A stretch of 64,000 nt of DNA from Candidatus Latescibacterota bacterium (GCA_963422735.1 OY730476.1:3840001-3904000); one strand, 5' to 3'; shown: positions 650 to 11,684, counted from the first letter of the stretch. Translations and numbers: made by a program. Notes: generated from the sequence alone by a model not told the origin.

Positions 650-766
650 ATGAAGCTCGAAATCGTATCGAAGCCTTTTGATGGTTATATGTCGCCGGCA
701 GCGAAAGGCGGCGGCGGCGGTGGCGGCGGCTGTTGCTGCTGCTGCATTATCATATTTTTCTGTTGA
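650..766 (+). CDS. RiPP (linear azole peptide/TOMM) precursor, 38 aa, MKLEIVSKPFDGYMSPAAKGGGGGGGGCCCCCIIIFFC
   Basis: Strong RBS, ATG at 650, TGA at 764-766, and a Cys-rich C-terminal core. It lies directly upstream of the E1-like, SagB and YcaO genes. The ORF track's 521 start is probably too long. Confidence 0.9.
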   Translation: MKLEIVSKPFDGYMSPAAKGGGGGGGGCCCCCIIIFFC

Positions 767-869
767 GTCCTAAACACTGTCAGAAAAAAATAGAAGCCGC
801 TATTGAATGTCGCCCTAGGGACCTGTTATTACGGCTGAGGCTATCTTGGCCCTAAACGGTATTCAGTAT

Positions 870-911
870 TACCTGCCCGTAGTAGATGGTATTTATTGCT
901 GCGGGCAGGTA
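870..911 (+). terminator. Stem-loop between the precursor and the modification genes (terminator, attenuator or mRNA-stability hairpin)
   Basis: TACCTGCCCGTAGTA (870-884) pairs with TGCTGCGGGCAGGTA (897-911) with two G-U pairs. There is no strong U-tract. Confidence 0.65.
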
Positions 912-1018
912 CTTAGTCCACTTGAGATAAATAATTTGGCTCCTACAGTGTACGTTGATCAGTCGTTCGCGATCAACTATTTTCGGACGAGCCATAACAA
1001 CCAAAAGAGCAAATATCC

Positions 1019-8636: not shown

Positions 8637-8642
8637 TACAAA

Positions 8643-10877
8643 ATGAATAAAAGATGCGCCGCCCGACAGACCGCGATCGTCCTGTTCTGCGTTTCCCTAC
8701 TCGCCGGCCAGACCTTTGCCCAGAGCCAGGCCTTTGTCCAAGGACAGGTCGTCGATGAAACAGAACGACCGATGGCCTTTGTCAACGTACAAATCATCGA
8801 CACTACCGACGGCGCAATTACAGGCCGCGATGGCCGCTTTGCCTTTTCCACCCGGCACTTAGGACAACGCGACCTGAGTGCCTCCTTCATCGGCTTTGAA
8901 CCCACCCGCAAGACTCTGAGCTTGACCGCGGGCGATACCACAACGGTTCGCTTGGTGCTGCGGCGCGTCCTCATTGAACTCGGTGAAACCGTCGTCACAG
9001 TTAGCACCTACACCACCGGGGAGGATGAGACCGTTACCCTTACCCCCTTAGATGTGGTAACAACGCCTGGGGCTTCCGCCGATATTTTTCGCACATTCAA
9101 AACCTTCCCCGGCGTTGCCACCGTAGATGACGGTGCCGGTCTTTTTGTCCGGGGGGGCGATGTAAGCGAGACCGTCATTTTGCTCGACCAAGCCACGGTG
9201 GTGCATCCCTACAGATATGAATCACCCACTGGAGGGGTATTCGGCACGATTCCTGCCTTTATGGTCCAAGGTACGGCCTTTTCCACCGGTGGATTCTCCG
9301 CCCGCTACGGCAATGCGCTTTCCGCGGTGCTGGCAATGGAGAGCCTAGACATGCCCGCGCAACGGAGCTATATGCTCAGTTTGGGCCTCGGTGCCGGCTC
9401 TGTGGGCCTCGACATGCCTCTTGTTGACGATAAGCTCGGCCTGCGCTTCACGGGCAATCTCAGCTTTACCGATCTCCTGTTCCGCGTCAATGGACACCGC
9501 GACGAATTCACTACCACCCCACGCGGGCACGACGGCAATCTCAACCTAGTGTATCAATACTCGCCGACTGGACGCCTCAAACTCTTCAGCTTTAACGCGA
9601 ACGACCGGATCGGCGTACGCGTAGCCGAGCCTTCGTTTGACGGCCAGTACCGAGGCCACGCCGATGACTACCTACACAATGTCCAGTGGACGGATGTATG
9701 GGCCGATTGGTTCATCCAGACCAGTGCCTCGCTCAATCAGCACTCGGCCCGGCAGCAATTGGGCAACTTGGACTTAACTTCCCGCGACTTGACGGGCAAA
9801 ATTCGCACAGATTGGGAAAGCGTCCTCGGTGCTTTCGGGGTCTTGCGCCTTGGTACCGAAATGGAGTACGCTGACAACCAATTCGCGGGCAGCGTTCCTC
9901 AGGACGATATTCTCGACCCCGAGGCAGATGTTTTTGAACTCGACACTTCCTATAGCGCTCGGCGCTCGGGTGCCTACTTTGAGGTCGATTTCAAGCCCGT
10001 GCGCCGCATCGTCGCCAATGTCGGCACGCGCGCCGATCACCACAGCTTGGGCGGTGGTTTTGTCATAGACCCGCGTCTGTCTGCACAATACCAGTTCTCA
10101 GAAGATACAAACGCCCGACTCGCTTGGGGCATCTATCACCAATTCCCCGCCCCATTTGAATACAACCCCACCAGCGGCAACCCCAATCTGGGGCCTCAAC
10201 GCGCCCAACACTGGATAGGCGGCTTGCACCACGAACGCGCCTCATTCCTAGTACGGTTGGAGGCTTACTACAAACCCTACCGCAACCTCGTCCTAGATGA
10301 CCCCGACCTGAATCTTGCAAATACGGGTAGAGGCCGAGCCTCTGGTGTTGACCTCTTTTGTAAATACGGCGGTTTTCTCGATACGCGCTTGAGCGGGTGG
10401 ATGGCCTATAGTCTGCTGCGCTCGCGTCGATTGCAGGTGCGTCACATGGGGTTTGAGACGCGCCGCGAAGAAGCCCCTTCGCCGTTTGATATTACGCACA
10501 ATCTGACCTTGGTCACAAAAATGCAGATCGTCCATACCCTCAGCGGCGGCCTGACCTTGAAATACGCCACCGGCCGGCCCATCACTCCAGTCGTCGATGC
10601 CATTCCCACTGCAGGCAAAAGCTACTACCTGCCCATAGAGGGACCTATCGGCTCAGAACGGCTGCCATCCTTTCAACAGATAGATGGGCAGTTGAGCTAT
10701 GTGCTGTTTTTTGGCACCGGGCACCGAGCGGTCTTCTACTTGGCGGTCAACAACCTGCTCAGTCGCGCAAATGTGCTCGACTATGATTACAGCATCGACT
10801 ATACTCAGCGCCAGCTACGCACCTCCCTCTTTCGCCGATCCATTTACTTTGGCACCACTGTCTCTCTGAATTATTGA
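8643..10877 (+). CDS. TonB-dependent receptor with N-terminal CarboxypepD_reg-like domain
   Basis: Signal peptide, VQGQVVD...FVNV...SFIGF, plug motifs PGV...LFVRGG and GGFSARYGNALS, and a barrel ending NNLL...YFGTTVSLNY. Confidence 0.9.
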   Translation: MNKRCAARQTAIVLFCVSLLAGQTFAQSQAFVQGQVVDETERPMAFVNVQIIDTTDGAITGRDGRFAFSTRHLGQRDLSASFIGFEPTRKTLSLTAGDTTTVRLVLRRVLIELGETVVTVSTYTTGEDETVTLTPLDVVTTPGASADIFRTFKTFPGVATVDDGAGLFVRGGDVSETVILLDQATVVHPYRYESPTGGVFGTIPAFMVQGTAFSTGGFSARYGNALSAVLAMESLDMPAQRSYMLSLGLGAGSVGLDMPLVDDKLGLRFTGNLSFTDLLFRVNGHRDEFTTTPRGHDGNLNLVYQYSPTGRLKLFSFNANDRIGVRVAEPSFDGQYRGHADDYLHNVQWTDVWADWFIQTSASLNQHSARQQLGNLDLTSRDLTGKIRTDWESVLGAFGVLRLGTEMEYADNQFAGSVPQDDILDPEADVFELDTSYSARRSGAYFEVDFKPVRRIVANVGTRADHHSLGGGFVIDPRLSAQYQFSEDTNARLAWGIYHQFPAPFEYNPTSGNPNLGPQRAQHWIGGLHHERASFLVRLEAYYKPYRNLVLDDPDLNLANTGRGRASGVDLFCKYGGFLDTRLSGWMAYSLLRSRRLQVRHMGFETRREEAPSPFDITHNLTLVTKMQIVHTLSGGLTLKYATGRPITPVVDAIPTAGKSYYLPIEGPIGSERLPSFQQIDGQLSYVLFFGTGHRAVFYLAVNNLLSRANVLDYDYSIDYTQRQLRTSLFRRSIYFGTTVSLNY

Positions 10878-10898
10878 CCTTAACCAAAGGGGCCATTT

Positions 10899-11684
10899 AT
10901 GCAACGCTTTCTGCTCTCACTCGTTTTCATGTCCTCGATCGCATATCCCGCCTTCGCCCAATCAGCCGATAGTCTTCTCGTCAGTGGAAAACAGATGCTG
11001 CAAGCCGGTGAAAATGTGAGCGACCTCGACTCTATGTATGCAGCCAGAGCGATGTTCGAGCGCACCCTAGCCGACACGGGTCTGGCTGCATGGAGCCACT
11101 ACTACATCGCCTTGGCCGATTACCGCATCGTCGATCTCCTATTAGCCGAGGGCGAAAAAAATAAAGACGCGGCTTCTGAGCACCTCAAAGCCACTGTCGA
11201 GCATTTGAAAAAGGCTACCGAGCTCGACCCGCAAGCGGCCGAAGCCTATGCTCTGCTATCGAGCGCGTACGGACGACAAATCGGCCTGAGTCCTATGAAA
11301 AGCATGTTCTTGGGGCCCAAAATTGGAAAGGCCATCCAAAAAGCCAAGCGACTCGCACCCGACAATCCGCGCGTGGCGCTGAGTGCGGCCATCAGCGACT
11401 TTAATACCCCCAAAATGTTTGGTGGAAGCAAAGAAGAGGGCCTGCAAGGGTTCCAGCGCGCCGCCGAGCTCTTTGCCCAAGAAAAGCCGACCGACCCCAT
11501 CCAACCTATATGGGGACACAGCCGCACTTACGCTTGGCTCGGCATCGCTTACCAGGATCGAGGTGAGCTGGAGCTGGCGCGCGTAGCCTTTGAAAAAGCG
11601 CTTGAAATCAATCCGGGTTTTGGTTGGGTCAAGTTCGTGCTGCTGCCCGAATTGGAAAAAGCCAATTCACCAGATGCACCGTGA
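10899..11684 (+). CDS. Secreted TPR-repeat protein
   Basis: Signal peptide ending AFA, TPR patterns (AEAYALLSSAYG; AWLGIAYQDRGELELARVAFEKALEINP) and PDNPR...TPKMFGG. Confidence 0.8.
   Translation: MQRFLLSLVFMSSIAYPAFAQSADSLLVSGKQMLQAGENVSDLDSMYAARAMFERTLADTGLAAWSHYYIALADYRIVDLLLAEGEKNKDAASEHLKATVEHLKKATELDPQAAEAYALLSSAYGRQIGLSPMKSMFLGPKIGKAIQKAKRLAPDNPRVALSAAISDFNTPKMFGGSKEEGLQGFQRAAELFAQEKPTDPIQPIWGHSRTYAWLGIAYQDRGELELARVAFEKALEINPGFGWVKFVLLPELEKANSPDAP

Follow-up and report, generated by a model that had tools for sequence, protein, structure and literature searches.

What is made by a tightly packed bacterial locus that places a small cysteine-rich open reading frame (ORF) beside YcaO- and SagB-type enzymes, an exporter and an outer-membrane receptor, and which of these genes belong together? 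The locus in question occupies positions 650-11684, + strand, of a 64,000-nucleotide stretch of the genome of a Candidatus Latescibacterota bacterium (GCA_963422735.1, OY730476.1:3840001-3904000), which was analysed at its full length and is referred to here as the window. It is an intact operon for a small ribosomal peptide, and the Cys run of the precursor is probably turned into a chain of thiazole rings and the product exported. We consider it likely that the operon is driven by sigma-54 and directs the synthesis of a linear azole-containing peptide (LAP; thiazole/oxazole-modified microcin, TOMM) with a streptolysin-S-like (SLS-like) build.

Organization of the locus

The elements that an earlier note on this DNA had listed are all in place on the + strand, as confirmed by profile hits and translations. 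Together with the promoter-like element and the mRNA leader they are, with the evidence in brackets (TPR, tetratricopeptide repeat; RRE, recognition element for the precursor of a peptide that is made on the ribosome and modified after translation, RiPP; FMN, flavin mononucleotide):

481-495, + strand: sigma-54-type -24/-12 element TGGCAC-N5-TCGC (conservation among relatives)
496-649, + strand: conserved untranslated leader of the precursor mRNA (DNA alignment)
650-766, + strand: precursor peptide gene, 38 amino acids (translation and family alignments)
871-910, + strand: stable stem-loop 3' of the precursor gene, without a U tract (folding and shuffles)
1019-2131, + strand: E1/ThiF-like partner protein with an N-terminal RRE-like domain (PF00899, 36 bits; predicted fold)
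2156-2971, + strand: degenerate SagB-like (nitroreductase-fold) protein, probable inactive partner subunit (TIGR03605, 22.5 bits; fold match)
2975-3967, + strand: SagB-type FMN dehydrogenase (TIGR03605, 135 bits, cut-off 78)
3960-4742, + strand: ABC-2 type permease (PF01061, 79 bits)
4752-6215, + strand: YcaO cyclodehydratase with the C-terminus GPVPFP (PF02624, 160 bits)
6232-6960, + strand: CPBP (Rce1-like) intramembrane protease (PF02517, 67 bits)
6948-8636, + strand: ABC ATPase fused to a cytoplasmic TPR domain, residues ~335-562 (PF00005, 104 bits)
8643-10877, + strand: TonB-dependent receptor with an N-terminal CarboxypepD_reg domain (Pfam: barrel and CarboxypepD_reg; plug 14 bits only)
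10899-11684, + strand: secreted TPR protein, 261 amino acids, signal peptide ...AFA/QS (signal peptide and TPR family motifs)

From the start of the E1-like gene to the TPR protein gene, all on the + strand, the intergenic gaps or overlaps are no longer than 24 bases. The whole gene set is also found in 15 of 15 related loci that cover the upstream region, and distant loci carry it in other gene orders; a gene set that recurs in this way lies far beyond chance. Related loci are denoted below by L-numbers and the genomes compared by G-numbers. Many of the distant loci are short contigs, and absence counts carry little weight there.

The precursor peptide family

Translation of 650-766 gives MKLEIVSKPFDGYMSPAAKGGGGGGGGCCCCCIIIFFC, with AAGGAGG located 8 bases upstream. 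The 38 residues are divided into a conserved leader, a GGGGGGGG spacer and a CCCCC-IIIFFC core, the predicted core comprising ~11-14 residues. Each of the 15 related loci with upstream region has a small ORF, or a pair of them, encoding the leader MKL(K/R)IVSKPF(D/N)GYMSPA. In the family alignments M1, K2, L3, S7, F10, P16 and A17 are invariant and the poly-Cys core is variable. After the leader, the precursors of the relatives carry a spacer of ~3 to 24 residues, a block of 5-9 Cys (CCCCHCHC or CCCNCNCC in some of them), and a short, mostly hydrophobic tail. A near-invariant leader joined to a core that differs in almost every species is the hallmark of RiPP precursors. In 10 loci (L001, L004, L005, L006, L008, L009, L011, L012, L013 and L016) two precursor genes, each with a core of its own, lie upstream of the E1-like gene, and in L004 the second copy is accompanied by a repeat of part of the upstream leader. 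The window has a single precursor gene, and its leader-plus-promoter stretch is single-copy in the genome.

Homologous precursors were recognized in 9 distant loci; in 8 of them (V/I/F)APGG stands directly before a Cys/Trp-rich block. This distant set includes Pseudoalteromonas shioyasakiensis JCM 18891 (L026) and Rheinheimera riviphila KYPC3 (L021), with precursors that score 23 and 21 bits, respectively, against the NCBI streptolysin S model (cut-off 35). The L001 precursor has no match to the streptolysin S/listeriolysin S family at E<=1. In an alignment of the whole precursor set, MKL, the Tyr at position 13 and the first Cys pair line up. Judged from these alignments, the small poly-Cys ORF belongs to a precursor family and is not a chance ORF.

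The modifying enzymes

The YcaO protein aligns with the SagD-family model TIGR03604 over model positions 1-377 of 377 with 208.3 bits, narrowly missing the curated cut-off of 219.25; its scores against other models are 62 bits for the McrA-thioamidation type (TIGR03266, cut-off 365) and 34 bits for the kinase type. The C-terminal P-x-P-x-P motif, PVPFP in the window, is invariant among 16 diverse sequences. Among solved structures it comes nearest to those of the cyanobactin heterocyclases MusD, LynD and TruD, and no TfuA match was found in any of the 9 cluster proteins. The YcaO domain and the Pro-rich end place the protein, as far as its sequence can tell, with the azoline-forming type.

The E1-like protein scores 50 bits against the SagC-family model TIGR03603 (cut-off 187.65) and 19.5 bits against TIGR03882 (cut-off 36.9). 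Its predicted structure (pLDDT, the model's per-residue confidence, 84.8) begins with four short strands followed by three helices, joined to the E1 domain. Foldseek ranks MccB (E 5e-19) and PaaA first, followed by LynD and TruD, all of which carry a peptide-binding RRE ahead of an E1-type fold. From this topology the N-terminal domain can be read as an RRE, and binding of the leader is predicted. The likeness to MccB and PaaA extends over ~360 columns and covers the RRE-then-E1 architecture and the Rossmann Gly motif (GGGYLG in the window protein). However, the identity is 17-19%, and the window protein sits with YcaO and SagB, as the TOMM 'C' proteins do.

In the canonical SagB, residues R125, S127, R129, P169, G172, G173, K244 and Y245, forming the RxSxR, PxxGG and Lys-Tyr motifs, are invariant in 15 of 15 sequences; the Lys-Tyr motif is required in dehydrogenases of the SagB/McbC type. 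Its neighbor has no Pfam match and, apart from the 22.5 bits with TIGR03605, is recognized by its fold: the model (pLDDT 74.7) matches 3eo7 best (Foldseek E 2.6e-7), then McbC and ThcOx. This second protein keeps YHENSK and GPRGYR, and lacks both the FMN-related RxSxR and the Lys-Tyr motifs. The two SagB-like proteins noticed earlier are thus both encoded, but one is a canonical enzyme and the other a degenerate paralogue. The pair occurs in every relative long enough to show both genes. The reference structure 3eo7 is Ava_2154 of Anabaena variabilis, a 511-residue putative tandem-domain nitroreductase, in which the N-terminal half resembles the degenerate protein (profile match to residues 156-238, E 5e-13, with a further match to McbC) and the C-terminal half the canonical SagB (residues 325-509, E 1e-68, with further matches to ThcOx and McbC, the latter at E 9e-15); the halves form a single chain there, whereas two genes encode them here. 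From this we infer that the two SagB genes encode a split pseudo-dimeric dehydrogenase with a single active site.

The CPBP protease retains its three catalytic motifs in translation (EEVLWR, FGMNH and HQVFN). Among the relatives, L003 shows an in-frame stop near the start of the degenerate SagB gene (7421-8230), with a Met codon directly after it, and the YcaO gene is in two frames in 2 genomes (G132 and G136; compare L015, 10001-11149). These irregularities may reflect decay, assembly errors or a later true start.

Comparison with known azole-forming systems

The closest known kind of system is an SLS-like TOMM cluster. According to Molloy et al. (2015, PMC4513790), SLS-like toxins are defined by an N-terminal block of contiguous heterocyclisable residues ('NPH'), a block that is also the minimal cytolytic feature, short natural cores can be active, and the clusters are reported from Firmicutes, Spirochaetes and Actinobacteria. 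The window core accords with this definition, as it starts with a contiguous Cys block (CCCCC, 5-9 Cys in relatives). Further likeness to the sagA-I type is seen in the SagB-type dehydrogenase, the E1-like partner, YcaO, the CPBP protease and, though its permease stays far below the SagH cut-off, the ABC exporter of the window cluster, as well as in the APGG before the block in 8 of the 9 distant relatives. This APGG equals the cleavage motif of sagA. The differences begin with the host, which is diderm, and with phyla beyond those named for SLS-like clusters in that paper. The window precursor has no SLS-model match and the relatives stay below the cut-off; the core is very short, with ~11-14 residues; the dehydrogenase is divided between an active and a degenerate protein; and a single ABC-2 permease is combined with an ATPase that bears a TPR domain. 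Further additions are a secreted TPR protein, which puts TPR domains on both sides of the inner membrane, and a TonB-dependent receptor (a MacB set in some relatives). The gene order and the sigma-54-like promoter also differ. The earlier view that the cluster departs from the known SLS type holds for the gene order and for the receptor and TPR protein, whereas the contiguous Cys block, the APGG of the relatives, and the CPBP and ABC proteins bring it closer to the SLS design than had been assumed.

Microcin B17 offers a second comparison, and with it another possible activity, namely that the product is a polyazole poisoning type IIA topoisomerases. The McbBCD system shares with the window the E1-like scaffold, the FMN dehydrogenase, YcaO and a Gly-spaced Cys-rich core. 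Profiles pick up McbC and McbD as relatives, and a poly-Gly spacer precedes the heterocyclisable block, as in microcin B17. In addition, a GyrB-like and GyrA/ParC-like gene pair lies directly upstream in divergent orientation (3836952-3839368 in the window's own genome; 1337-5058, minus strand, in L001). The similarity is nevertheless weak (E 2e-4 to 9e-6, the latter being the McbD match) except for SagB-McbC at 9e-15, contiguous Cys stand in place of Gly-Ser-Cys motifs, and the poly-Gly spacer is absent from the conserved features of the relatives. No sign of Mcb-type immunity genes was seen among the Pfam hits of the window proteins. The genome has only two type IIA topoisomerase sets, of which the upstream pair is one, and the pair is equally present in cluster-less congeners at ~91-94% DNA identity; for these reasons it is probably the housekeeping topoisomerase IV and not an extra resistant copy. 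Gyrase self-resistance as the principal reading of the locus was rejected on the same grounds, the pair being the sole second type IIA set and kept in congeners without the cluster. A topoisomerase poison of the microcin B17 kind is, on balance, very unlikely.

In agreement with the earlier description of the cluster as uncharacterized, no publication on this cluster family was found, supplementary gene-cluster-family tables aside (PMC9426513, PMC11832590). These tables may already include the cluster; PMC11832590 names a family, FAM_00447, as conserved in Latescibacterota. The 2015 TOMM landscape paper (PMC4603692) has no mention of TonB, TPR, tetratricopeptide, Gammaproteobacteria, 'two dehydrogenase' or Pseudoalteromonas, and a 2025 review (PMC12426817) none of the terms looked for in it.

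Promoter, leader RNA and hairpin

In the window, as in 15 of the 16 loci L001-L016, the element TGGCAC-N5-TCGC precedes the first precursor ATG by ~169-172 nucleotides; no match was obtained in L013, and none in L014, whose contig begins inside YcaO. The element is kept in congeners that lack YcaO, and the genome has one rpoN. The -24/-12 pattern is found 4 times in the window against 0.82 expected (1 of 100 shuffles reaches 4), a count that is not significant alone, and the case for a sigma-54 promoter rests on conservation. A scan of the + strand for sigma-70 promoters returned only 9-of-12 promoter-like matches. The other matches to the -24/-12 pattern are on the minus strand (39479-39493, 50446-50460 and 63295-63309).

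The untranslated leader at 496-649 carries a palindrome directly after the promoter and combines high DNA conservation with frame-breaking indels in 13 sequences. One compensatory pair change was observed, and the consensus fold pairs CCUC with the GAGG of the ribosome-binding site. Since Rfam gave no match in 1-1200 at E<=1, this 5' leader falls in no described RNA family.

The hairpin at 871-910 has a folding energy of -28.8 kcal/mol (z -4.46), equalled by 0 of 200 shuffles. In an alignment of 7 loci all 7 retain it, L005 showing a two-sided change; a terminator scan did not call it. A strong hairpin 3' of a poly-Cys ORF could also suggest a different function, in which the ORF is a Cys-sensing regulatory leader peptide and the hairpin its attenuator; in mycobacteria, polycysteine short ORFs are described as Cys-responsive attenuators (bioRxiv 10.1101/834739). 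In the present family, however, conservation is confined to the first 17 residues and it is the Cys block and the tail that vary, the reverse of what an attenuator needs. Also, the ORF is duplicated in many loci, its distant homologues lie between YcaO and E1 and carry APGG, and the hairpin has no U tract. We regard this explanation as highly improbable.

Distribution and replacement of the cassette

Database searches with the YcaO protein returned 111 relatives at E<=0.001, ~54 of them with at least 73% identity and the same length of 487 amino acids. A scan of one genome per species gave 17 loci, of which 15 carry the label Latescibacteria/-ota, one that of Gemmatimonadetes and one that of Poribacteria. 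Of 168 genomes of the phylum, 22 have the precursor-plus-enzyme set, and all but one of the 22 belong to a single genus: YcaO is present in the genome of the window, in 20 of the 30 remaining species of that genus, and in 1 of 15 genomes from a genus in a different family. An extension to lower identity added 11 genome loci and 22 metagenome loci, with a recognizable precursor in 9; the E1-like protein, both SagB-like proteins and YcaO occur together in 7 of the 11 and 7 of the 22, the remainder being mostly short contigs. These distant versions, with poly-Cys cores, come from Gammaproteobacteria (two cultured strains), from records labelled Actinobacteria, Chloroflexota and Bacteroidetes, and from metagenomes. 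The cluster is not unique.

Within the genus the cluster proteins are 68-88% identical, against 90-95% for the DEAD-box helicase and the glutamyl-tRNA synthetase on the flanks. In three congeners that lack YcaO (G140, G138 and G145), the same flanks and promoter enclose a different cassette of ~8 kb with 42-44% GC (L051, 6570-14496, in G140; L052, 4993-12738; L053, 1716-9506). It encodes a glycosyltransferase/transglutaminase (893 amino acids), a GT2-TPR protein (856 amino acids), a C39 peptidase (181 amino acids), and CPBP and Yip1 proteins, and is possibly another secreted-peptide system. G140 and G138 preserve a 68-residue relic of the end of the ATPase-TPR gene, plus the receptor and the TPR protein, and G145 has neither of the latter two. 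In window coordinates, the left breakpoint of the cassette lies at ~533-587 and the right one at ~8430 or beyond 11684.

Transport proteins, receptor and secreted TPR protein

The permease is DrrB-like below the cut-off (17 bits with the SagH model, cut-off 450), and the ATPase is DrrA-like with 196 bits, also below the cut-off. The C-terminal domain of the ATPase and the secreted TPR protein are paralogues with 42% identity. This TPR family keeps its motifs (YY-AL-DYR, NPR, TP-FGG and P-WG) from one phylum to another, and all free copies begin with a hydrophobic N-terminus; the signal peptide of the window copy has no lipoprotein (lipobox) Cys. The only non-generic solved relative is 6bqs (PG_2227, E 1.4e-19), and Protein Atlas look-ups gave generic TPR and SagB-type neighbors only. 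A complex of the cytoplasmic TPR domain with the precursor, predicted from alignments, scored 0.01 against a mark of 0.32, a value that speaks neither for nor against binding. In having a CarboxypepD_reg receptor followed by a gene for an all-helical TPR-type protein, the window resembles SusC/SusD and RagA/RagB pairs, of which RagAB imports peptides. The receptor differs from SusC/RagA in that its TIGR04056 match covers the N-terminal domain only, with 36 bits against a cut-off of 368, and its 261-residue partner has no lipobox Cys.

The GC content is 45.8% at 534-8430, 56.4% in the receptor-TPR stretch and 59.5% in the remaining window. Such values would be expected if the receptor and the secreted TPR protein were resident neighbors, alongside which a low-GC cassette was merely inserted. 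Also in line with this, the pair stays in G140 and G138, where the cassette has been swapped, and in L060 it is found (receptor 74% and TPR protein 64% identical) among unrelated metabolic genes. Against this, 8 of the 33 distant loci (L018, L021, L026, L029, L035, L036, L037 and L050) have the TPR gene within the cluster or next to it, and 4 (L018, L020, L029 and L050) a homologous receptor, in differing phyla and in gene orders unlike that of the window. The ATPase of the cassette itself carries the paralogous TPR domain; the only two copies of the TPR family in the window genome are both at this locus; and G145 has lost the receptor and the TPR protein along with the cassette. Simple residence is a minority explanation, although the most credible of the alternatives considered here. 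Two observations on the same stretch may be recorded. In the distant metagenome cluster L050 a B12-binding radical SAM enzyme (6652-7833) lies between the permease and two TPR genes, and an AraC/GAF regulator follows the receptor; in L011, L012, L014 and L016 some 1.1 kb of extra sequence sets the ATPase-TPR gene apart from the receptor gene, where the window has 6 bases.

Neither the receptor gene nor the TPR gene was found in L019, L023 and L027 (Actinobacteria and Chloroflexota labels), where the flank is sufficient. In the gammaproteobacterial clusters and in L035 a MacB/FtsX-type component takes the place of the receptor, with HlyD also present in L026. Conversely, the TPR family is found in 59 of the 168 phylum genomes, comprising all 22 with YcaO and 37 that have no YcaO at E<=1e-20, and in L060 and L062, the two receptor-bearing cases of the latter kind examined, the receptor adjoins the TPR gene and no cluster gene is present. 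A transport-only version was observed in L063 (G061, 9518-16954), with the permease, ATPase-TPR, receptor and TPR protein 65-70% identical to those of the window and no YcaO, E1, SagB or CPBP. Since a DDE transposase sits at the position expected for the enzyme genes, L063 is probably a decayed cluster or remnant; its use as proof of receptor piracy is weakened by this transposase.

These occurrences bear on a further possibility, that the product is a RiPP metallophore or shared extracellular peptide, exported by the ABC-2 system and taken up again through the TonB receptor and the periplasmic TPR protein, non-producers using the peptide of others. TonB-dependent receptors are normally importers, and siderophore receptors are likewise kept by non-producers. 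The TPR family without YcaO in 37 of the 59 TPR-positive genomes, with the receptor beside it in L060 and L062, fits such sharing, as does the pair beside the distant clusters L018, L020, L029 and L050. Several cores mix His with Cys, as in CCCCHCHC, and thiazoline and thiazole nitrogens bind metals in siderophores of the yersiniabactin type. On the other side, with SagB intact the expected rings are thiazoles, weaker as ligands than thiazolines, and the window core has no His and ends in IIIFFC. Profile scans found no inner-membrane importer or metal regulator site in the cluster, and ABC-2 systems are usually exporters. The gammaproteobacterial relatives have a MacB/HlyD-type efflux set and no receptor within 10 kb, and L063, the one transport-only locus checked, adjoins a transposase and looks like a remnant. 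A metallophore or shared peptide is unlikely.

Because of the host-like GC content, the occurrence in YcaO-less genomes and the survival of cassette replacement, the receptor and TPR protein are not simply parts of the cluster, as they had been counted earlier, yet they recur beside distant clusters. From the sequences compared we conclude that the pair is probably functionally linked to such peptides, without being exclusive to producers.

Proposed pathway and role of the product

The pathway outlined here, in which we infer all of the chemistry as well as the heterodimer, the cleavage event and the route taken, builds on the genes, families, folds, motifs, precursor family and linkage described above. 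The leader of the precursor (MKL-IVSKPF-GY-SPA) would be bound by the RRE-like N-terminal domain of the E1-like protein, and YcaO would use ATP to cyclise each core Cys onto the carbonyl before it, with thiazolines as the result. These may then be oxidised to thiazoles by a heterodimer, with one FMN site, that the canonical SagB forms with its degenerate paralogue. The CPBP protease is the candidate for removal of the leader, and the ABC-2 permease with the TPR-bearing ATPase for expelling the polythiazole peptide, which would be very hydrophobic, from the cytoplasm. Its handling in the periplasm and outer membrane might fall to the secreted TPR protein and the TonB-dependent receptor, in either direction. 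The earlier statement that the locus makes and exports a polythiazole is in this sense partly supported, by azole-type enzymes, a poly-Cys precursor family with a conserved leader, an exporter and a protease, the azole chemistry itself being a prediction.

Several points weigh against this scheme. The azole reading is, in our analysis, short of an observed product, mass shift or activity, and the predicted core is much shorter than streptolysin-type cores. Both the SagC-family and the SagD-family scores are under the NCBI cut-offs, and the window precursor matches no precursor model at E<=0.01. The E1-like protein may have an extra adenylation role, given its GGGYLG motif and its closest likeness to the adenylating MccB and PaaA. 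In 37 of the 59 TPR-positive genomes the receptor-TPR pair occurs without YcaO. No sequencing run on record as RNA was found to contain the locus; of the four runs checked, one guessed to be RNA produced short contigs dispersed across the locus and the flanking sequence, two gave nothing, and one is probably DNA.

If the biosynthetic reading holds, a membrane-active antagonist or cytolysin-like peptide is the favored product, though this assignment is tentative and falls somewhat short of an even chance; it is favored because contiguous heterocyclisable residues at the start of the core define the SLS-like family. On the same premise, a metal-binding or shared-good peptide taken up through the receptor would be a rather improbable product, and a topoisomerase poison considerably more so. 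More speculatively, the ATPase-TPR protein, the secreted TPR protein and the receptor might jointly form a polythiazole relay spanning the envelope, either with export through the barrel replacing MacB/HlyD, or with release and re-uptake and with receptor-only users, at a locus that is a swap site with one sigma-54-like promoter and two cassettes. We consider this combined picture doubtful.

Implications

If the chemistry holds, the locus would offer a compact way of making peptides in which 5-9 thiazoles are contiguous. Nature has already diversified the cores, with one or two precursor genes per genome that differ in almost every species, and the culturable members in Pseudoalteromonas and Rheinheimera make a pathway of a mostly uncultured lineage testable. 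The split pair of active and inactive SagB proteins would be a clean system for studying the role of the second subunit in azoline dehydrogenases. The recurring TPR protein and TonB receptor raise the question of how a hydrophobic modified RiPP crosses, or re-crosses, the outer membrane of a diderm cell, and the swap of cassettes behind one conserved promoter offers a case of allelic secondary-metabolite loci.

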